DNA of 37,823 nucleotides, from IMG/VR virus record IMGVR_UViG_2917855067_000005, one strand, 5' to 3'. The stretch comes from a virus (lineage: Duplodnaviria; Heunggongvirae; Uroviricota; Caudoviricetes). Below the pieces are notes generated by a model. That model did no database searches and was not told the DNA's origin. It saw only the letters and a list, made by a program, of their open reading frames with translations. Shown in pieces: positions 1 through 37,823 of the stretch. Within the stretch, counting starts at the first letter, position 1. Every line of letters starts with the position of its first letter. The position numbers and the translations under genes were made by a program.

Positions 1-774
<774 letters not shown>

Positions 775-831: not shown

Positions 832-1387
832 TCATTTATCTCCGACCGGAAACTTCTTATACAGTGTCGATATACCAACATCATAGATGATCGCCACCTT
901 CTGGCGAGGAACGCCTGATGCAATTAATCGCCCGGCCTGAACCCATTGTTCTGGTGTAAGTTTGGGACGACGTCCACCAATTCGTCCCTGTGCGCGAGCA
1001 GCTTCCAGTCCAGCTTTTGTTCGTTCAACAATCAGTTCTCGTTCCATTTCAGCCAAGGCCCCCATCACATGAAAGAAAAAACGTCCCATCGGTGTGCTGG
1101 TATCAATAGCATCCGTCAGGCTGCGAAAATTAACGCCACGTTCGCGCAACTCCTCAACCAGAATGACCAGATGCCGCATACTACGCCCCAGCCGATCCAG
1201 CTTCCAGACAACCAGAGTGTCACCTTCCGATAATGTCCTGAGCAGTTTTTTTCAGTCCCGGCCTTTCGGACTTTGTACCGCTTATCTTGTCTTCAAAAAT
1301 CAGCTCGCATCCTGCACAGTTCAGCGCATTACGTTGTAGATCTGTGTTCTGGTCATTTGTTGACACACGTACATAGCCAATAAGCAT
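832..1387 (-). CDS. Serine DNA invertase (Gin/Pin/Hin/Cin family), interrupted by a 1-nt frameshift in a T7 run (plus 1246..1252)
   Basis: Track ORFs 1220..1423 and 832..1179 together read MLIGYVRVSTNDQNTDLQRNAL ... GDTLVVWKLDRLGRSMRHL ... FFFHVMGALAEMERELI; removing one A from the run restores one frame. Confidence 0.88.
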
Positions 1388-1441
1388 GGTAGATCTCCCT
1401 GACAAAAGCAGGAATGATGCCATTTGCTCGTTATTTCTGCA

Positions 1442-1467
1442 TTTTCATAAACGTTGGTTTGGGAGAA
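1442..1467. other. Invertase crossover site (gix/pix/hix-like), core TT
   Basis: TTTTCATAAACG-TT-GGTTTGGGAGAA: two 12-bp imperfect inverted half-sites around a 2-bp core; right half is the reverse complement of the left half of the site at 3288..3313. Confidence 0.7.
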
Positions 1468-1812
1468 GCGGCAAAAAGGAATGTGGGGACAGGAGAAAAT
1501 CAGGTACCGGATATGAAGAGCTTTGGTAATTCATTGACCGCCAATGGATACCAGAAATTACCTGGGGGGATGATTATTCAATGGGGGAGTTTTTCTGTCT
1601 CACCAACCGGAGGAAGTGTTGGAACAGTTGATATAACATTACCTGTAGCTTTCCCTGCTGCTTGTCGTTCGGTAAACGCTCTTATTTCAACTAATGATCC
1701 TTCTGCCCGTTCTGTGGGCTTTGATATTGGAAGTACCAACAGAACTAAAATCAGATTTACTTACACTTCTGCTACAACAAATTCAATTTACTGGATGGCT
1801 GTGGGGTATTAA
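1456..1812 (+). CDS. Alternative tail-fibre C-terminal cassette (Sv'-like), promoterless in this orientation
   Basis: Frame through the crossover site encodes NVGLGEAAKR...; shares GLGE with the fibre gene at the other site, so inversion would fuse it to the constant N-terminus. Confidence 0.6.
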   Translation, partial: GLGEAAKRNVGTGENQVPDMKSFGNSLTANGYQKLPGGMIIQWGSFSVSPTGGSVGTVDITLPVAFPAACRSVNALISTNDPSARSVGFDIGSTNRTKIRFTYTSATTNSIYWMAVGY

Positions 1813-1814
1813 CT

Positions 1815-2246
1815 ATGGAAAAGACATATTATTTTAATCCCTCTGATTCGGGATTTTATATTTCACCAGATAGTCAAACCATTCCTGAGAACGCTACGAA
1901 AATAAACTTTACTATTTATTCTGAGTTCGCAGGAGTTGCATGGCCTGATGGTAAAATACTTGGTTCAGATAAAAATGGTTTTCCAGCATGGCAGGATGCG
2001 CCACCACTTACCAGCGAAGAATTAATCACAATCGCTGAATCAAATAAACAGCGATTAGTTAATCAGGCCAACGAATACATGAACAGTAAGCAATGGCCCG
2101 GTAAAGCCGCTATTGGTCGTCTGAAAGGCGAGGAACTGGCGCAATATAATCTGTGGCTGGATTATCTGGACGCACTGGAACTGATTGATACCTCCAGTGC
2201 TCCAGATATTGAATGGCCTACGCCCCCGGCAATTCAGGCCAGATGA
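1815..2246 (+). CDS. Alternative tail fibre assembly protein (Tfa')
   Basis: 143-aa ORF directly after the alternative fibre cassette; C-terminus ...DIEWPTPPAIQAR resembles the other Tfa C-terminus (DVIWPELPGA). Confidence 0.7.
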   Translation: MEKTYYFNPSDSGFYISPDSQTIPENATKINFTIYSEFAGVAWPDGKILGSDKNGFPAWQDAPPLTSEELITIAESNKQRLVNQANEYMNSKQWPGKAAIGRLKGEELAQYNLWLDYLDALELIDTSSAPDIEWPTPPAIQAR

Positions 2247-2820
2247 CATCCGGCGCTGTGCTGGTATCTGTTGCCGTCACCGCGTCAATGTAATCCAGCA
2301 CAGCGTTAAGTCTGGTTGTTTCTGCCTGCGTCAGTTTACGTCCGGCCTGCAATTTCAGTTGAATCAGACTGATGGAAGCCATTGCTGCATCAATCAGTGA
2401 CTGGCGCTGTGCTTCTGCCGCTTCTACTGCGGCACCGTGTTGTGCCTCAGTATCTGTCACCCATTTATCACCATCCCATTTATCGTATGGCGTTGACGGG
2501 GCGAGAGTGGTTGTATTTTCAGGGTAATCACCCGGAGTTTTGATTTCTTTTGATTCCCCTGTTTCGGTGCTATAGACAATTTCACCACGATGGTCTGACA
2601 CATATTCCCATGATTTTAAATCCACAGAACGGCAAATTGTATAACCAGCCTTATGTGTACCAGGAGCGTCTAAACAGGAATATGCCGGAATACCGACGCC
2701 CACAGCAAGATATTCAGTTGATGCAGAAATATATTCCCGCGTCTCACTGTCATAGTTGTAAACGATAATGTTTCCTTCCTGCACGGCAATAAGTTCGTTA
2801 TTTAATACCGCGTGATTCAT
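2218..2820 (-). CDS. Tail fibre assembly protein (Tfa/Mu U-like)
   Basis: 200-aa ORF immediately downstream of the fibre gene; conserved C-terminal ...TSTAPDVIWPELPGA. Confidence 0.82.
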   Translation of the reverse strand: MNHAVLNNELIAVQEGNIIVYNYDSETREYISASTEYLAVGVGIPAYSCLDAPGTHKAGYTICRSVDLKSWEYVSDHRGEIVYSTETGESKEIKTPGDYPENTTTLAPSTPYDKWDGDKWVTDTEAQHGAAVEAAEAQRQSLIDAAMASISLIQLKLQAGRKLTQAETTRLNAVLDYIDAVTATDTSTAPDVIWPELPGA

Positions 2821-3590
2821 TATGCTGCCCTCACAATAAAGTTAAATGCAATATTGCGCGGTCGTGTTTCGCTCCCGCCCGTGTTACCAATACTTCCTCG
2901 TGAATGCAACCTCGGAGCCGGAATAAGGGTTCCCCCTGTATAAACGGCGTCAAGCCCCCGACCTTGTGTGTATGTATTCTGAAAAATTGTAGCCAGCTCC
3001 CATTCTTCACCTGAATCATAACCATCGTTGGCAACAACAATATGGCGGTGCTTCTCCAGCATCCCAGCCTGAATGCTCAATAAAGCACGCCCTGCATCAA
3101 TACCACGTCCGTCATCCCATCCTCGAATAAACTCACCGCGTAAATCCAGCAGTTTCCCTGACGGGTATGCTTTGGCAAGGTTAGGATATTTCACCTTATC
3201 AAAGGCAGCACCATTGCATTTCAGCCAGCCTGTTGGCGGAGTGGCTGAAGGCCACGGAATCGGTACACCAACAGGCAATGCAGAGCCTTCTCCCAAACCA
3301 AGGTTTTCGAGAGCCGTTTTCACCGTGCCATCCGATTTGATATCACCAAACGGATTCTTGCGGCTTAACAGCAGCGCACGAAGCGCGGTAAGCAACTGGT
3401 CGTTTCGCCCCTTCTCCAGGCTGGCACCGGATGCCTCCACCACGCCACAAAGCTCTTCCTGCAACATGTCAAAGTAGTCATCATCCAGATCGGTAGCAGG
3501 CGTGCCGGTCTGGGGGTTACCACGGGTAAAACCGTTCTTACCCGCGCCGAACTTATCCTTCTGCGCGGTTTTCGTGTCTATACGATGCAT
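2820..3590 (-). CDS. Tail fibre protein (constant N-terminus plus currently expressed variable C-terminus)
   Basis: 256-aa [24 protein letters not shown]...; crossover site lies inside it at the GLGEG codons (3288..3313). Confidence 0.82.
3288..3313. other. Invertase crossover site, core AA (inverted relative to 1442..1467)
   Basis: TTCTCCCAAACC-AA-GGTTTTCGAGAG inside the tail-fibre gene. Confidence 0.7.
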
Positions 3591-4179: not shown

Positions 4180-5228
4180 GAAATCGTCCCCAGTACCGCC
4201 AGTTCATTTTTTGCAATGGAGATATTGTCCGCCGGTGCAAGCAACTGATGGCTGTATTCCCCGTTCGCACCGGAAATCGCTTCACTGATACGTGACACCT
4301 TCAGTTCTCCCTGCGGATAACCATCACGCAGCAGGAACGAACGCAACTCCGCGGTAATGGCAGCCCGTATTTCTGGTGTGTCCGGCGTCACGCGGATATG
4401 AAAATCCACCGTATGTGCCACCGGCCTGAATACATACAAATCAGAGCCTGCCACCGGGGCCAGTGGCCCGATATGTTGTCTTGCTGCCGTTTCCGTTGAT
4501 TCTTCCGGAATGGGATTAATCAGGTCACTGCTGGCAATCATCACACCGACAGTTCCCGTTCCCATCCAGTGACGGTATGTCCATGCGCGGGTAATGCCGG
4601 GCACTTCTTTAGCCCAGACGACATAGTCCCCGTCAGCCCCGCCCTGAGGCGTCCAGTAATACCGCTCAATGACGCGGGCGCGCCACGTGTCCAGCTCTTC
4701 AGTATCAAATCCACCTGTCAGGGTATCTGCCTCGCCAGAAGACGGCAGACCATTCACCGGCGTGACCAGGATTAATGACGTACCGTCGTCAGCATTACCG
4801 ACCGCGCCTGCACTTGAGCAGGCGATCGGCACGCGCAGGACACCACCTGTGCTGGTTGCATCGGCAGTTGCCGTGTACTGAACCAGGTCATCGCGCTGAA
4901 TAACACTTCCGGCGGTCACCTTCAGGCCATCGCTGACACCTTCCCAGCGCATATACCCGCTGGCAGCCGTGGCCCCCTTGCGCGGACACCGTTTCATCGC
5001 AGCATGTCGCGCCAGCCAGGACTCATCGCACAGGTCAGGCAGCATGTTCATTGCCAGATAATCGATGTACCCGTAAACCGTATGCAGCGCCGCCGCATAC
5101 ACCTTTGCCCGCACGTCTTCATCCATGCGCCGGAGCGTGTCGCTGACGTCCAGCCTGGCGAATAAATCGTTACGGAGCATACTGATATTTTCTGCCAGCG
5201 TCGGGCGCTGAAATTCACTGTCCGCCAT
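4170..5228 (-). CDS. Baseplate J-like protein (Mu gp47-like)
   Basis: 352-aa ORF in conserved position within the Mu-like baseplate gene order; family call from memory. Confidence 0.8.
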
Positions 5229-8606: not shown

Positions 8607-8632
8607 AAAAAAAACCCGCCGAAGCAGGTTTT
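8607..8632 (-). terminator. Intrinsic terminator downstream of the lipoprotein moron
   Basis: Minus-strand RNA AAAACCUGC-UUCG-GCGGGUUUU followed by more U: 9-bp stem with one G.U pair, UUCG tetraloop, U-tract. Confidence 0.7.
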
Positions 8633-8645
8633 AATAAATTATCTA

Positions 8646-9323
8646 TTATCTAAAGTTACTTATTACGCGATACCTTATGCTTTGGTTACTCGCATCAAGT
8701 ACTTCGAATTTAGCGCCTTTATAGCCAATTGTTTTAGACTCCGCGAGATCATACTCAACATCGTTGTTGAAGGCCGGGCGCGCTGTATTCGCTGAAAATT
8801 CACGATATCCAATGTTGATTTTGTTTCCGACCCTTCCGTTGTAAAGCAGAGCTTGCTGGAAAGATGAGTCACCACTGATGTTCAGATTAACCTTTTCGAT
8901 CGGCATGTTGGTTTCACAGGTGGTAGCGCCAAAAACTGTTATTACACATAAGGCATTATTTTTCTTTTCTACCATGATGCCCTGCCACATATCGGCAAGA
9001 GCTGCCTTTTCCACATTGGCTGAATCAGCACCGTTTGTGAGAAAGTAATAATCTGCCTTGTTATCCTCACCAACCTTTTTCAGCATCCCCGGAGTAATCG
9101 TATAAGCCCAGGAAACTCTCGCGGGAGCATTAACCTTCAAACCTTCGAACTTCTGTGACTCACCCTGCTTAATCATCGAATCACCGACATAAGCTGTATT
9201 AATGCTTCCTACAGGAGGCTCACTATAACTTTCTGTTTTTGGTAAATAATTATACTTCGGAGATGTACATCCCCCGAGTAAAAGAGCCATGCCGACAACT
9301 GAATAAATTGTTAGAATTTTCAT
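8646..9323 (-). CDS. Lipoprotein of unknown function (moron; candidate superinfection-exclusion or surface protein)
   Basis: Signal peptide MKILTIYSVVGMALLLGGC with lipobox-like LGGC (start chosen at this Met inside track ORF 8646..9365); visibly AT-rich; own terminator. Confidence 0.68.
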   Translation of the reverse strand: MKILTIYSVVGMALLLGGCTSPKYNYLPKTESYSEPPVGSINTAYVGDSMIKQGESQKFEGLKVNAPARVSWAYTITPGMLKKVGEDNKADYYFLTNGADSANVEKAALADMWQGIMVEKKNNALCVITVFGATTCETNMPIEKVNLNISGDSSFQQALLYNGRVGNKINIGYREFSANTARPAFNNDVEYDLAESKTIGYKGAKFEVLDASNQSIRYRVISNFR

Positions 9324-9404
9324 ATCCCTATTCCCATCATTAAATAATCGGACTAATCCTACCAAGAATCAGCAAAACGACAAAACCCGTACTTAAGCTG
9401 GCTA

Positions 9405-11185
9405 TTAGCCCCCCATACCAAACCGGGTGTAACCAACGTCGTGATTCACGTCGATACCACTGGAGCGGGTATCGGTCACCCGCATCCCGGGAGGCGCATC
9501 CTTAAACGAGACCGTAATCTCGCCTTCAGCCTTCTTCGGCGCAGCCTGAACTATCTGATACGGATTGTATCCCTGAGCAGAAACGCCTGTACCGTACGCC
9601 CCATAGCCACCGGTACCCCACTGAGTCGCATTGGCTGAAACCACCGTGTCGCTGGCACCATCAGTAAACCACTCAATAATTGGCTTCAGCTTGTCCCACA
9701 TATCCTGAAACCACTTAACAACCGGCCCCCAGTTATTGATCACCATCCCCAGCGGCGACCAGGCAAAAACTTTCTTAAGGAGTTCCCAGCCAGCCTCAAA
9801 ATAAGGACCAATGGTTTCCCAGAGTTTCTTAAAATAAGGCCCGACAACATCCCAGTTAGTGATAATTAATCCCGCAGCCAGGCTATCGCCGTCGCAATCA
9901 TGCCAATCGGCGTCATCGACATGCTCCTGCTGACAATACTGATGGCACCGCCAACGCCCATCAATCCCAGTTTCAGAATCGCAAGACCGGCAGCAAGCCC
10001 GACGACACCGCGAATAACCCGGGGATTTTCATCCGCAAACTTCGTGAATTTCTCCCCCAACTCCCCCAGCCATTGCGTGATATTTTTAGCGTCACCAGAA
10101 AATGCGCCGCCAATAGCCGCAAGGCCGTTAGTTGCGGTCCCCGTCATTGCCTCCCACAGGTTGGACAGCGTACCAAGCTGGGCCTGAACACGTTTATTCA
10201 GGCTGGCCTGTTTATTCATCTTCTGCTGGATCTGATCGTAGCCATCCTTTCCTTTATCGATTAGTGCATTGACCACCTGAAGGGTTTCGGCATCATCACC
10301 AAATATTGCCTTAAGTACACCTGTTCGCTTAACGTCGGTCAGTTTTCGCAGCTTTGCCAGTTGCCTGAACATGTTATCAAGACCGCCAAAACTTCCTTTG
10401 CCGTCAGTAAAATCGAGCTGTACCCCGAGTTTCTGGCGGGCCATGACTTTATTGACGTCCCTGATTTTCTTAACGCTTAATCCGGACTGGATAACTTTTC
10501 GCAGGGCGTTACCTGCCGACTCCCCGTTCATCCCCATCTGATCCATCATGACGCTGATGGGGGCAAGGCTCTGTGCAGCCTGAAGACCGTCCTTGTTCAC
10601 CATCTTCAGAACAGAGCTGGTTTTAGTGAAGAAGGACAACATGTTGGTATCGTCAACGCCCAGATAAAACGCCTTCTGGATAGTGTCGAACAGCCCCATC
10701 ATGTCTTCTGACGCCGTTCCGGTAGCATCCTGCATCTTTGCGGCAAACTCGGCAGCCGCTTCCGGTGTTTTTTTCAGTTGTACCGCAAGATAAGCTGTCG
10801 CTTTACCCACACCGCCAAGAATGTTTTCTGCCGGGATCCCCTGACGCACCAGCATCTGCATCATGTTCTGGAAATCAGCCGTTGTACCGGGTAGCTGGTT
10901 ACCCAGGCCAATAGCCAGTTTATTGATGTCCTGAAAGCTCTTTCCAACCTCGCCGTTCGCATCCATCATGGCGACTTTCAGCCCGGTGGCGGCGTTTTCC
11001 TGATCGGCATAAGATTTCAGGGAAAGCGTCAGACCCGCTGCCAGTCCGCCCCCAAGCGCCAGCCCACCCTGTGACGCTTCTTCCGCCTGGCGTTTAAATC
11101 CCCGGATTTTCTTTTGCATTTTCGACAGCGCGGGAGAAAGCCTGTCGACACCGGTGATCAACGCCTTAAGCTCAAATTCAGCCAT
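9405..11185 (-). CDS. Tail tape measure protein, interrupted by a 1-nt frameshift near 9881..9882
   Basis: Track ORFs 9866..11185 and 9405..9746; downstream frame stays open across the junction (...LAAGLIITNWDVVGPYFKKLW...) with repeated W-rich motifs; one extra C restores ...AIALAAGLIITNW.... Confidence 0.78.
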
Positions 11186-21137: not shown

Positions 21138-21261
21138 ATGCGGCACTCCTGGTTAAATTTCATTTTTCGCGGGTATAAAAAAACGATGGGGCGGGCAGTC
21201 CTGAAGGCGTCAGGTCACAGGGATTTGACCCGCCCACCCCTCTGGCAGTGGAAACTGGTTC

Positions 21262-23991: not shown

Positions 23992-25026
23992 ATGACTGCA
24001 TCAGCGACCCCCACTAATATCACTCATAAGTTTATTGTTCACATTATGAACAAGGAACAACAGGGGTTAGCCACCATTATTCCTTGTCCTTCAGAAAAAC
24101 CTGTTCAGCAAGCATCAAAAGACCTCTCTAACGCACTTACTGAAAGGTACTCTGGGAGAGCAGGTAAAGGATATGGGAAATTTGAAGATGACCGCGATAG
24201 TTACCCTATGGGTAATATCGTTGATGATTATTTCGTAAATAAAACACATAGTTTTTATGATACTAGTATCCGAATGATCAATCATTTAAAAGCCAGAGCC
24301 GATGATGAATCAATGTCTACTGGTGGTTATGTAATAATTGCCCATAATGAGGTAAATGGAAATCATTATTTGATGGTTGCAATCCTAACTTCAGCAGTTG
24401 GCTCTTCAGTCCACGATTTTGAAATTCAAGAAAGTGAATATCTAGACATTGCTAAACTTCGAGTAGCGGGACGAATTGACTTAACTGGGCGCCAGAATGG
24501 CAAAGAGAGATATATTAGCTTTCTAAAGGGGCAAAATTCAGTAGCAGGTTATTTCAAAAAGTTTTTAGGTTGCAACGATATTCTAATTGCCAAACAAGAA
24601 ACAACAAAATTACGGAATGCACTTTTAGAATTTGCTACTGAAAGAGGTTTTGAACCAGAGGCACGTGAAGAGTTCCTAAATAAGGCTCATGAAAAATTAA
24701 AAAATTTAAATCGTTCTGGTGAAACTTTCGACACTCAAATTTTTGCAAACGAGATATGGCCAACTGCTCCTGAGTTGTTAGTTGAAAAGTTAACCAATGA
24801 CGATCTGGAGTTCTCTGATGGGTTCGTGCCTGATGGCAACGTTATACGTGGGCTTGTTAGTTTCAAAGGAAAGTCCAAACATTGGTCTCTGAAATTCGAG
24901 CGTGCGGCCTTGCATGATGGCAGCGTTCTTTATGATTCAGAAAACGATAAATTGATACTTACCGAGATTCCGGATACGCTAAGATCAGAGATTTTATCAG
25001 AATTAGGTGAAGAGGATGAGCAGTAA
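23992..25026 (+). CDS. Nucleoid-associated protein YejK/NdpA-like (NA37 family) homolog, phage-borne
   Basis: 344-aa ORF with AAGGA RBS; central region GGYVIIAHNEVNGNHYLMVAILTSAVG ... YLDIAKLRVAGRIDLTGRQNGKERYISFLKGQNSVAGYFKKFLG parallels my recollection of E. coli YejK; visibly AT-rich. Confidence 0.68.
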   Translation: MTASATPTNITHKFIVHIMNKEQQGLATIIPCPSEKPVQQASKDLSNALTERYSGRAGKGYGKFEDDRDSYPMGNIVDDYFVNKTHSFYDTSIRMINHLKARADDESMSTGGYVIIAHNEVNGNHYLMVAILTSAVGSSVHDFEIQESEYLDIAKLRVAGRIDLTGRQNGKERYISFLKGQNSVAGYFKKFLGCNDILIAKQETTKLRNALLEFATERGFEPEAREEFLNKAHEKLKNLNRSGETFDTQIFANEIWPTAPELLVEKLTNDDLEFSDGFVPDGNVIRGLVSFKGKSKHWSLKFERAALHDGSVLYDSENDKLILTEIPDTLRSEILSELGEEDEQ

Positions 25027-26194
25027 AAATCAGAGAACCTTCAAAGACTTAGTGACTATTTACAAGGCCGCTACATTTGCAGGTACCCTATCTGAAGCAT
25101 CACTCATTCTTTCAAACGAGGAGCTCTGTGACATCATCAACGATATCACAGAGAATCCCCATGATTTTGGCATCACCCTTGAATCTGGCAACATTGAGTT
25201 AGGCCAAACTATAACCTTACATATAACCCCCCCCAAATTACGATTGGGGCAGCTACATTTCTCTTTTAATGAGTATTTAAAAAATCCTAAAAATAGGATA
25301 AAGGAAGCCAGTAACTTCTTTATAATCGAACTTAATTATCACAACAGGGATAAAAAGTCGCCTGCTATTATATCCAAGTACAGAGATGTTTTGAGCTTAA
25401 TTACTTTATTCAAAGATTGTTCTGCTTATTTAGATGAAACAAATTTTGAATTGGTATTCGTCGAATCCAACGTACTAAAAATTCCAGTAAATTATTCTAG
25501 CGATGATCTTATGAATGTTAATGGAGATCTGATTCATAATTTGATCGCAAACTTTGCAGAAGATACGCATAAAGATCAAAAACTTACTATTTTAGCAAGT
25601 AGTATAAAATCATCATGTGAATCTAAAACTAAAGAAACCTCTTTTTCCTTCATGTTAAGGGATTTAGGACAACTTTATGAAAGTTATCAAAAAGGATACA
25701 AAGTATTCGTTTCTGGTTTTTCTTACGAGAAAATACTGGATCAGTTACGAGTAGCCAAAATAGAAGAGATGGGGAAAATACATAAAGTATTCAGTGACAT
25801 ACAAAAATCAGATATTAGGTATCCCCTCGCAACAATTATCGTTGCGACTCAAATGAAGCAGGCTAATGGTTGGGATAGTCAAGCATTAATAAACACAGCT
25901 GTAGTGTTGGGTGCATTGTTCTTCACTATTATGATTATATTTGTTCTATTTAATCAATGGCAAACTTTAACAGCAATAAATGATGAGTTAAATCATAAAA
26001 AACAACAAGCAGAATATAACTTCAAGGCTATTTACGAAGATATAAAGGATACATTTGATAGTTTAACCACAAGATTGCTTGTTCAGAAAGTTGTTTTTGC
26101 CTCATTAGGAATTATAGTTTTATGTGGCTTATATCTTACATTTAGATTCTACTTTTTACTTACACCTTATGCTATTACATATTTATTTATCTGA
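25016..26194 (+). CDS. Hypothetical protein with two C-terminal transmembrane helices (partner of the YejK-like gene)
   Basis: Track ORF from GTG 25007; ATG at 25016 has AGGTGA 6 nt upstream; overlaps the upstream gene; hydrophobic segments NTAVVLGALFFTIMIIFVLF and VVFASLGIIVLCGLYLTFRFYFLL; AT-rich. Confidence 0.65.
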   Translation: MSSKNQRTFKDLVTIYKAATFAGTLSEASLILSNEELCDIINDITENPHDFGITLESGNIELGQTITLHITPPKLRLGQLHFSFNEYLKNPKNRIKEASNFFIIELNYHNRDKKSPAIISKYRDVLSLITLFKDCSAYLDETNFELVFVESNVLKIPVNYSSDDLMNVNGDLIHNLIANFAEDTHKDQKLTILASSIKSSCESKTKETSFSFMLRDLGQLYESYQKGYKVFVSGFSYEKILDQLRVAKIEEMGKIHKVFSDIQKSDIRYPLATIIVATQMKQANGWDSQALINTAVVLGALFFTIMIIFVLFNQWQTLTAINDELNHKKQQAEYNFKAIYEDIKDTFDSLTTRLLVQKVVFASLGIIVLCGLYLTFRFYFLLTPYAITYLFI

Positions 26195-35951: not shown

Positions 35952-37823
35952 TTAAACCACGATTCCTAAATGGCATGGTTGCTCACCTTCAAGAGAGGCT
36001 CTCATTAAGGTCAGGAATTGGGATAAATTATTTCTAAAATCAGAACCACTATCTTCCGCCATTCCTGGAGCTAACGAACTTACTAATAAAGCAGGTGTGA
36101 TAGGTCTTGTTCCGTAAATACTATATTTCTCATGATGGAAATGACGAGTCTCGCAAGATTCACTTGGATTTACAATCATCAGCCCAGAAGACAAACTTTT
36201 TCCAGTATTTTTTTCATGTATACCATGAAGGTATTTCATAGTGAGTTCGGGGAGGTAATGTGTAAACGCTTTTTTACTGGTAGTATACTTTGCATCTAGG
36301 ATTAATTGCCTTTGTTCACCCGTAGGCGTTGAAATGCAAACTATCATGTCTGGTGATCGATTAGCATTAGGACCTTGCTGCCCTCTAGGCTTCAATTTAC
36401 CTTTCACGGTGTCTAGAGTCCACCCTTCGGAGTTAATTAGGGAAGCCCCAAAAGAGCTTGCATGATCATGAGTCCAAATTTTCATCTCATAGATAAGCTG
36501 TACAGTAAAACCTCCCCAGTCATACTCAAAATTATTCCGTTCTATTACAGGGCCATTCACTAGCTCAAACTTCATGCCCAATAGCCGTACGTTGTCAAAG
36601 TGATACTTAATTAAAAATAATAGGTAGTATTCAAAAAGTTTTGGGATACTTTGTATCGAAAATAGCTCTTCCTGTACGCTCCAATCAGGTGCGCCGAATC
36701 TATGCCAAGCAATTATTTTATGAAAAACCTTCTGATAATGAAGGTTGTATCTAGCTTTTCTTGTGAATTGCGGAGTGCCAATGATAATATTAGTTACAGG
36801 AACCCGCTCATCAAAAGTTCGTTTCAAACGCTGTAGATTAATAATCAATTCTTTACATCGTGAAACTTTATTTTTATTTACAACCTTTGCAAACTTACTT
36901 AGCTGTGCAAAAAATGAAATATACCCGGATATGCTCGACTGTTCACGAATTCTGGAAGAAGGATACTCTTCAAGCCGACTCAAGATCTCCGATGCAGCAC
37001 GCATTAGGGATACTATAAAGCCATGGACAACTTGATTTTCATAAATATTCAAATCCTCTTTTAGATGATTTTCTAATATTCGTTCCGATGAATAATATGT
37101 GCCATCTAGTTCCAATATTGCGCGGGTCTGATCATTAACTGGATAAAGGTTGTCAGAGTTTTCTGAAATCCAAGCTAAAGTGGTGTCATCGATAACAGAG
37201 TTTTCGGATACTACGACAACTTTAGTCACTGGTGTAAGTTTTGCGATTGGCCTGGAATAGATATTTGGAATCTCGGTCATTAACAATAAAACATTTCGTT
37301 CGAGTTGTTCAATCAAAAAGCTAACCGATCTTTCTCCTTCTTTGAATCCTGCATTTATACGAGTTACTCTAAAAAATGCTGCTAGAGCATCATTATCATG
37401 ACACGCTAAGAAATCGAGCATTTTTTCTGCCCGTTCAGCATTCAATTTTTTGGCAAATACTTCAACCGGAGAATATTGTTCAATAATAACTCTTTCGCCA
37501 ACTCCATCGATTTTTGTTACTATCGATAGCTCTGCCATACCATAATAGTTATGAAAAAAGCATTCGTATGTTGATCGATATATAGATTTTGGTTTCCATT
37601 CGTAAATCCATAGGCCATCGTATTCTTTGCTAGAAGTTATTCCTATTTCATTTTCATGAAGACATAAAAAAACATCATCCAACGGAACAGATGCTTCCAG
37701 CCTAAACTCTAGAGCTTCGTCTTCCAGAAAATAAATCTGATTAGAGGACTGAAGACCAAAGGGAGTCAACCCTATCTCTAGACCACTTCTCCTGCCGTTT
37801 ATTATCTTCGCAGTAAACCTCAT
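35952..37823 (-). CDS. Large hypothetical protein with C-terminal PD-(D/E)xK-like nuclease motif (candidate restriction/defence component)
   Basis: 623-aa intact ORF starting at the last three bases of the window; visibly AT-rich; motif SPDMIVCISTPTGEQRQLILDAKY fits PD ... (D/E)xK spacing. Confidence 0.65.
   Translation of the reverse strand: MRFTAKIINGRRSGLEIGLTPFGLQSSNQIYFLEDEALEFRLEASVPLDDVFLCLHENEIGITSSKEYDGLWIYEWKPKSIYRSTYECFFHNYYGMAELSIVTKIDGVGERVIIEQYSPVEVFAKKLNAERAEKMLDFLACHDNDALAAFFRVTRINAGFKEGERSVSFLIEQLERNVLLLMTEIPNIYSRPIAKLTPVTKVVVVSENSVIDDTTLAWISENSDNLYPVNDQTRAILELDGTYYSSERILENHLKEDLNIYENQVVHGFIVSLMRAASEILSRLEEYPSSRIREQSSISGYISFFAQLSKFAKVVNKNKVSRCKELIINLQRLKRTFDERVPVTNIIIGTPQFTRKARYNLHYQKVFHKIIAWHRFGAPDWSVQEELFSIQSIPKLFEYYLLFLIKYHFDNVRLLGMKFELVNGPVIERNNFEYDWGGFTVQLIYEMKIWTHDHASSFGASLINSEGWTLDTVKGKLKPRGQQGPNANRSPDMIVCISTPTGEQRQLILDAKYTTSKKAFTHYLPELTMKYLHGIHEKNTGKSLSSGLMIVNPSESCETRHFHHEKYSIYGTRPITPALLVSSLAPGMAEDSGSDFRNNLSQFLTLMRASLEGEQPCHLGIVV

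Follow-up and report, generated by a model that had tools for sequence, protein, structure and literature searches.

The DNA inversion systems of the Din family (Hin, Gin, Cin and Pin) are built from a common set of elements. Each acts on two inverted 26-bp sites, which are imperfect palindromes sharing a central 2-bp crossover dinucleotide, and each encodes a serine recombinase of about 180-190 amino acids with a resolvase catalytic domain at the N-terminus (catalytic serine at about position 9-10) and an HTH at the C-terminus. The 5' part of the invertase gene also contains a recombinational enhancer that acts in cis and depends on Fis. The Pin system of the e14 prophage in Escherichia coli K-12 (pinE, stfP-tfaP / tfaE-stfE) is carried on a 15-kb remnant, and inversion of its segment has been documented experimentally (PMC4272514, PMC12529663).

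The locus at positions 832-3590 of the window, the whole stretch of 37,823 nucleotides that was analysed, is very probably the Pin/P-segment tail-fibre inversion module of an e14-type prophage. More specifically, all the traits of an e14-type Pin module were found: the crossover sites, a pinE orthologue, a constant fibre part that follows ymfQ, and two cassettes each consisting of a fibre tip and a Tfa gene. The initial annotation had described a Gin/Pin-type invertible fibre switch, and its sites, its invertase, its two opposed cassettes and an in-frame fusion in either orientation were all recovered. A Pin-type switch that exchanges the tail-fibre tip is a phage DNA switch of an already known kind, that of the e14 prophage family, and the locus opens no new question; its value lies mostly in annotation, in that it is orthologous to the classic e14 Pin switch and belongs to a nearly complete e14-type prophage from the rarely sequenced cryptic clade II. 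The host strain, E3356, belongs to Escherichia cryptic clade II. The prophage spans intE to pinE and is adjoined by an icd fragment, as is e14, and it contains the e14-type genes intE, xisE and ymfK/L/T/Q/R; RefSeq uses the names pinE, tfaE, ymfQ and intE at orthologous loci. Its baseplate and sheath are Mu-like and its head is HK97-like.

Likeness to K-12 e14 extends to gene order and spacing, which are equal, and to the sequences of Pin (94% identity), YmfQ (98%), the constant fibre part (95%) and TfaE (85%). In contrast to the e14 remnant, the prophage described here is full-length, with head, tail and lysis genes. The tips have diverged from those of K-12 (56% identity for the E-type, 33% for the P-type), the neighbour of pin is PD-T4-3 rather than mcrA, the orientation in the window is the 'inverted' one relative to the MG1655 reference, and pin is frameshifted as deposited.

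The pin-proximal crossover site occupies positions 1442-1467 (26 bp, TTTTCATAAACGTTGGTTTGGGAGAA, core TT at 1454-1455) and precedes the start codon of pin by 55 bp; the fibre-proximal site, within the fibre gene, occupies positions 3288-3313 (26 bp, TTCTCCCAAACCAAGGTTTTCGAGAG, core AA at 3300-3301). Both sites, their cores and the approximately 1.87 kb that they bracket had been placed correctly in the initial annotation, and the imperfect dyad symmetry noted there amounts to 16 of 26 positions in the pin-proximal site and 18 of 26 in the fibre-proximal one. Compared as inverted repeats, the two sites match at 21 of 26 positions, with identical inner halves and different outer halves. Their outer span is 1872 bp and the distance from core to core is 1844 bp. 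A 19-nt core pattern allowing up to three mismatches occurs exactly twice in the 37.8 kb, against 0.01 occurrences expected by chance, and two loose AAACCNNGGTTT-like matches elsewhere in the window are at chance level. A multi-segment system of the Min or shufflon-like type was rejected because only two crossover sites turned up.

For the alignment with known sites, which had been proposed as a check on this assignment, the two sites were compared directly with those in the records of K-12, P1 and Mu. The pin-proximal site is identical at 26 of 26 positions to the pinE-proximal site of K-12 e14, and the fibre-proximal site is likewise identical (26/26) to the site inside stfP. Matches to P1 cix are lower (19/26 for the pin-proximal site; 20/26 for the fibre-proximal site with cixR), and those to Mu gix are lower again (17-18/26 over both sites, 18/26 for the fibre-proximal one). 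Both sites are in register with P1 cixL and cixR as well as with Mu gix, and the crossover annotated in P1 falls at the same central dinucleotide.

The fibre gene (2820-3590, minus strand, start codon beginning at 3590) encodes 256 amino acids with a Pfam Collar domain. Its constant N-terminal part (3300-3590, minus; residues 1-97) is fixed behind ymfQ and the baseplate genes and has 95% identity to residues 1-105 of K-12 StfP. Fused to it at present is a variable C-terminus of the Collar type (2820-3299, minus), which is StfE-like and 56% identical to the K-12 stfE product. The silent alternative C-terminus (1456-1812, plus; Pfam Gp53-like_C, E = 1e-18) shows 33% identity to the StfP tip of K-12, and belongs to a C-terminal ORF (1414-1812, plus) in which the first 14 codons are fixed DNA outside the segment. 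Each tip is paired with its own Tfa gene, and both Tfa products match Pfam Caudo_TAP. That of the presently fused tip (2218-2820, minus; 200 aa, E = 4e-33) is 85% identical to K-12 TfaE, and that of the silent tip (1815-2246, plus; 143 aa, E = 9e-30) shares 65% identity with K-12 TfaP over the C-terminal half of the latter; the 3' end of the gene for the 200-aa Tfa overlaps the other Tfa gene by 29 bp. The two cassettes are thus opposed, with the fused tip and its Tfa on the minus strand and the silent set on the plus strand, as originally read.

The first 97 fibre codons are not part of the segment and stay behind the late operon, so each orientation yields a different in-frame tip fusion. 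Flipping the segment in silico produced an in-frame fibre of 215 amino acids with the gp53-like tip, and the same protein is found in public assemblies, which bears out the earlier proposal that inversion swaps the fibre end in frame. The crossover had further been placed within GLGE codons shared by both fibre versions. These codons are indeed shared, but the core dinucleotide corresponds to positions 2-3 of the Leu97 codon (CTT, 3302-3300), directly 5' of them. Since the G-L-G-E codons lie in the identical inner half-sites, the first 101 fibre residues, ending ...ENLGLGE, are common to both orientations.

The serine DNA invertase gene pin (832-1387, minus; ATG at 1387, stop at 832) adjoins the segment. 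In the deposited sequence a +1 frameshift breaks the gene at codon 47, leaving a 55-codon reading, of which 47 residues (the catalytic Ser9 among them) are native, and a downstream ORF of 115 amino acids. Pfam detects Resolvase on each fragment and, on the downstream one, HTH_7 as well. Removal of one A restores a protein of 184 amino acids with 94% identity to K-12 PinE, which also matches the structures of Gin, 3UJ3/4M6F, at E = 7e-94; membership in the Gin/Pin family, as first assigned, is supported for this corrected reading, and pinE is also the RefSeq label of its orthologues. Within the 5' part of pin, positions 1298-1369 (minus; pin nt 19-90) form the putative Fis-dependent recombinational enhancer. 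The P1 record annotates its enhancer at cin nt 19-90, and the two stretches align without gaps; across pin, cin and gin the mean column identity of the region is 89%. Over its first 120 nt, pin is identical to K-12 pinE at 118 positions.

The segment occurs in both orientations across this family of E. coli loci. Among complete E. coli genomes, 63 carry the orientation of the window and 53 match the version flipped in silico. In each of two near-clonal pairs of E. coli (strains 113 and 119; LCP30S3_I5 and HCP5S3_I2), the two members are related by an exact inversion and show 0 mismatches, and the breakpoint interval is a 16-nt stretch beginning at the core TT. The predicted flipped fibre of 215 amino acids is present in E. 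coli assemblies, as protein P0001, at 100% identity and coverage and with neighbours in mirror image.

By analogy with related invertases, Pin dimers would bind the two inverted 26-bp sites and, together with an enhancer occupied by Fis at the 5' end of pin itself, make 2-bp staggered cuts at the central TT/AA. Half of the complex would then rotate by 180 degrees, and religation would leave the 1.84-kb segment flipped. Either orientation joins the constant fibre part in frame to a different receptor-binding C-terminus with its own Tfa downstream: in the state of the window this is the StfE-like/Collar tip (256 aa), and in the flipped state it would be the gp53-like tip (215 aa). We infer the cleavage chemistry, the dependence on the enhancer and Fis, and the consequence for host range from the family to which the invertase belongs.

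Other inversion systems share parts of this arrangement. The Cin/C-segment system of P1 has the 26-bp sites with an AA/TT core, opposed cassettes of fibre tip and Tfa, and the enhancer-homologous region at nt 19-90 of the invertase gene. However, its segment is 4.2 kb, its fibre is much longer, the tips are unrelated, and cin has its 3' end at the site whereas pin has its 5' end there. The Gin/G-segment system of Mu (S/U, S'/U') is similar in its baseplate context, with gp45-gp48 homologues upstream of the fibre, and in an invertase gene that starts 55 bp beyond the site, in addition to the structural match of corrected Pin to Gin. It differs in a gix core of GA rather than AA, in a G segment of 3 kb, and in a constant S part of 169 codons compared with 97 here. 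In the P2-like 'Peduovirus magyaro' (KC618326), an invertase and cassettes with approximately 89% nucleotide identity to those of the window are joined to a P2-type fibre. The stf tip and tfa presently in use are approximately 87% identical in nucleotide sequence to those of the side tail fibres of HK97 and HK106, which have neither an invertase nor a second cassette. Fibre shafts and virion types differ in all three of these phages.

The frameshift in pin, which the initial annotation had reported, is present in the deposited sequence as a run of seven A in place of six (1246-1252, minus, codons L-K-K-L; read as T7 on the plus strand); the corresponding tract in E. coli relatives is A6 or A5G. 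It is probably an Ion Torrent homopolymer error rather than a real lesion. The source genome of E3356 is an Ion Torrent draft at 40x (PMC6639607), and approximately 11 single-base indels relative to relatives are found across the window in other genes, most of them changes in run length; the window contains no IS element or large deletion. Supporting this conclusion, an independent assembly, SRR6148328_109 (perhaps another isolate), agrees with the window over 22.6 kb with 0 mismatches, the differences being confined to four homopolymers. At two of these its genes are intact: pin has A6 and encodes an intact protein of 184 amino acids, and ymfQ is intact at 194 amino acids. At the other two (4212 and 20517) the window agrees with relatives and SRR6148328_109 does not, so neither assembly is simply 'correct'. 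The 'pseudogenes' of this prophage are not to be trusted without better reads.

A real frameshift in E3356, which would leave the switch locked in the StfE-like state or flipped only by a related invertase in trans, is unlikely given these data and was kept as a rival; real frameshifting by decay was set aside as the default in view of the sequencing platform and the discordant second assembly. In its favour are the A7 of the deposited assembly itself and the frameshifts that both assemblies have in the genes for the tape measure, TerL and TerS, which would fit a prophage in decay. If the prophage is truly defective, as it may be, there would be no virion for fibre switching to act on. The earlier suggestion that the switch may be locked unless the frameshift is a sequencing error needs softening on the side of locking, since K-12 PinQ, an invertase from a different prophage, inverts the e14 segment if provided in trans (PMC12529663). 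As to the reservation about sequencing error, the evidence leans toward such an error.

It is less probable still that the module is kept for the benefit of the bacterium rather than for phage host range, with ORF 1414-1812 as the positional counterpart of K-12 StfE2, a protein reported to block adsorption of phage T2 (PMC12529663). The orientation in the window is that called 'inverted' in K-12, in which the constant part carries the E-type tip and the pin-proximal leader the P-type tip; the known defence gene PD-T4-3 directly adjoins pin, and RefSeq calls ORF 1414-1812 a CDS in relatives. Its product, if expressed, might shield a surface receptor from incoming phages, alongside PD-T4-3. Against this, the tip is only 33% identical to that of K-12 StfP, and in the alignment the leader differs between the window and O157 relatives at five of nine comparable residues, which argues against selection on the leader as a protein. 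In addition, the scan for sigma-70 promoters of pin or ORF 1414-1812 gave counts not above shuffled controls, and the set of virion genes in the window is complete except for single-base indels. PADLOC returned no matches for the other cargo-like genes (the NA37 protein, a 395-aa ORF, the DUF2357 protein and a 144-aa ORF). That the switch would serve as a host-side defence toggle, beyond its role as a phage host-range device, is slightly more doubtful again; as a weaker variant of the same idea, the A6/A7 tract in pin may be a true slippage site that turns the invertase on and off.

The view that the inverted repeats are coincidental or a relic, with no site-specific inversion at such loci, has almost no probability left. 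Two matches observed where 0.01 were expected and the identity of the sites to experimentally inverted e14 sites speak against it, and for the family it is refuted by the occurrence of both orientations, by exact inversions between near-clonal genomes and by the existence of the flipped fibre as a real gene. The roughly 1:1 split of orientations, together with exact inversions between near-clonal isolates, provides a reusable illustration of a switch that is active in natural E. coli populations.

The two crossover sites of 26 bp, at 1442-1467 and 3288-3313, bracket two opposed fibre/Tfa cassettes. Minus-strand genes encode a fibre (3590 to 2820; 256 aa, Pfam Collar) and, downstream of it, a Tfa chaperone of 200 aa (2820 to 2218); the plus strand has a C-terminal fibre ORF (1414-1812; Pfam Gp53-like_C) and, again downstream, the gene of a Tfa of 143 aa (1815-2246). 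The resolvase/invertase gene pin, on the minus strand and in two pieces, adjoins the cassettes. The sites are inverted repeats of one another (21/26 match) with identical inner halves and different outer halves, and their 19-nt core pattern, allowing up to 3 mismatches, has exactly two occurrences in the 37.8 kb of the window, versus 0.01 expected by chance. All gene and site coordinates of the initial annotation are found in the sequence, as is the imperfect dyad symmetry that it ascribed to the sites (16/26 around the central TT at 1454-1455 and 18/26 around the central AA at 3300-3301). Its placement of the crossover within shared G-L-G-E codons needs adjustment: the codons are indeed shared, being encoded by the identical inner half-sites, but the core dinucleotide occupies positions 2-3 of the Leu97 codon, immediately 5' of them. 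The opposed Tfa genes share 29 bp at their 3' ends (2218-2246), and the conserved Tfa C-termini produce an inverted repeat (2156-2173 and 2282-2299) detected by a repeat finder.

Comparison with known systems is revealing of the identity of this locus. Complete E. coli genomes of the same architecture carry the RefSeq names pinE, tfaE and ymfQ, with intE and xisE at the opposite prophage end, all of which are names used for genes of e14, a cryptic prophage of K-12. Both K-12 e14 sites, which lie inside stfP and between stfE and pinE, are identical to those of the window (26/26), and identity is 94% between PinE and the window Pin (one base removed, 184 aa), 98% for the likewise corrected YmfQ, 95% for the constant fibre part and 85% for the 200-aa Tfa. 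More distantly, the P1 sites cixL and cixR align in register at 19-20/26 with the same AA/TT core, annotated as the crossover point in the P1 record, while Mu gix, with a GA core, aligns at 17-18/26; crystal structures of Mu Gin, 3UJ3 and 4M6F, are matched by the corrected Pin at E = 7e-94, and the enhancer annotated within P1 cin has an ungapped alignment to nucleotides 19-90 of pin (window 1369-1298). The Gin/Pin-type switch proposed by the initial annotation is thus borne out by the invertase, the site alignments and the opposed cassettes, and the locus is the e14 Pin/P-segment system itself, in an e14-type, uncrippled-looking prophage of another Escherichia lineage. The system is already known and no departure from its kind was seen, although the variable tips have diverged from those of K-12 (56% and 33% identity) and the neighbouring cargo gene is different. 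Directly beside pin, a gene at 1-774 (plus strand) encodes a LEM-3-like GIY-YIG protein with a full-length match to PADLOC PD-T4-3 (E = 2e-137); it occupies the place of mcrA in K-12 e14 and some relatives (L009, L021).

Both orientations of the segment occur among relatives. Counting complete E. coli genomes that match 80% or more of the query at a single place, 63 have the window orientation and 53 the orientation flipped in silico. Two near-clonal chromosome pairs, strains 113 and 119 and the pig isolates LCP30S3_I5 and HCP5S3_I2, share the position of the locus and are set apart over 4.1 and 5.5 kb by nothing but an exact inversion, with 0 mismatches. The exchange interval in these pairs is the 16-nt stretch TTGGTTTGGGAGAAG(+1); since the two sites carry different bases immediately outside the core, the start of this interval falls exactly on the core TT. 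The e14 segment itself has been found in both orientations side by side within clonal K-12 cultures (PMC4272514), and both PinE and, acting in trans, the PinQ invertase of a different prophage invert it (PMC12529663).

An in-frame swap of the receptor-binding end, as initially proposed, is what the flipped product displays. Reverse complementing 1454-3301 in silico leaves the first 101 fibre residues (...ENLGLGE) unchanged and joins them in frame to the gp53-like tip; the result is a fibre of 215 aa with the 143-aa Tfa next downstream. This exact protein (100% identity and coverage) is a called gene on at least 10 public E. coli contigs, whose gene order mirrors the window: ymfQ, the 215-aa fibre and the 143-aa Tfa, then on the other strand the 200-aa Tfa and a silent Collar-type tip, and then an intact invertase of 184 aa. 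By analogy with the invertase family, Pin dimers would bind both sites, the invertasome would be assembled by an enhancer that lies within the 5' portion of pin and is bound by Fis, Ser9 would make 2-bp staggered cuts at the central TT/AA, and the 1.84-kb segment would be inverted through subunit rotation and religation. Inversion would leave in place the distant upstream late promoter and the first 97 codons of the fibre, so that each orientation would express one receptor-binding tip with its cognate Tfa and leave the alternate pair without promoter or N-terminus.

It is very improbable that ORF 1414-1812 acts in the present orientation as a host-side defence toggle: it is the positional analogue of the K-12 StfE2 chimera, recently reported to block phage T2 adsorption (PMC12529663), and a bona fide defence gene, PD-T4-3, adjoins pin, but its tip is only 33% identical to that of K-12, the protein sequence of its short leader shows poor conservation as read from the alignment, and a scan detected no promoter for it.

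The initial annotation correctly saw a frameshift in pin: the run at 1246-1252 is A7 in the deposited sequence versus A6 or A5G in relatives, and the reading frame consequently ends after 47 native residues. Its suggestion that the switch may be locked unless this is a sequencing error resolves towards error. Relative to E. coli, the window has about 11 single-base indels, mostly run-length changes, which break ymfQ (3769), a gp44-like baseplate gene (6234), the tape measure gene (9881), TerL (20262), TerS (20773), antiterminator Q (26448), ymfL (31627) and intE (34971); others lie at 21237 and 34336. No IS elements or large deletions were found in the window in this comparison. Ion Torrent chemistry is prone to homopolymer-length errors. 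GenBank contig PDIE01000019.1, which matches the window at 100% identity, belongs to the draft genome of strain E3356 (Escherichia cryptic clade II), built from 40x single-end Ion Torrent reads (PMC6639607). An independent Logan assembly (run SRR6148328, SRR6148328_109) overlaps the window by 22.6 kb with 0 mismatches and differs solely at four homopolymers. In it the pin and ymfQ runs are shorter and both genes are intact (184 and 194 aa), while at 4212 and 20517 it is SRR6148328_109 that falls one base short and the window that has the run length of relatives, which is what noisy homopolymer calling would produce; judged from these alignments, both assemblies evidently miscall run lengths. 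Taken together, these observations make the pin frameshift a probable sequencing artefact. Frameshifts common to both assemblies could reflect either systematic error or genuine decay. Given the Ion Torrent source, many or all of the gene-breaking indels may be artefacts, and caution is advisable with the gene calls of this contig.

The prophage covers nearly the whole window, with a Mu-like baseplate and sheath, HK97-like head, lambdoid lysis/early region and intE, and an icd fragment lies just past the left end in the source contig. The same invertase and cassette module also occurs on a P2-like phage, and HK97 and HK106 have a side tail fibre end about 87% identical to the tip and Tfa now fused in the window; this sharing is ordinary fibre-tip mosaicism. 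Homology to the HK97/HK106 stf-tfa genes (2166-3311) and to the P2-like module (1001-3312) stops within about 10 bp of the fibre-proximal site, and thus the ...ENLGLGE junction also looks like a boundary for horizontal tip exchange between unrelated phages. In the tape measure region (8612-9643), about 700 bp are absent from the closest complete E. coli relative, strain 20 (1031 versus 332 bp), a length polymorphism of that gene besides its frameshift. Between the lysis genes and Q, the opposite strand (23992-26194, plus) carries a gene for a nucleoid-associated protein of the NA37 family (344 aa) and, overlapping it, an ORF of 395 aa that has no match in Pfam or PADLOC; the two look like a moron or cargo pair of no assigned role. 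Just past intE, a DUF2357-domain protein of at least 623 aa (35952-37823, minus strand; no PADLOC match) continues beyond the window end; the same neighbour is present in E. coli H22, and the gene may be cargo or part of a flanking island.
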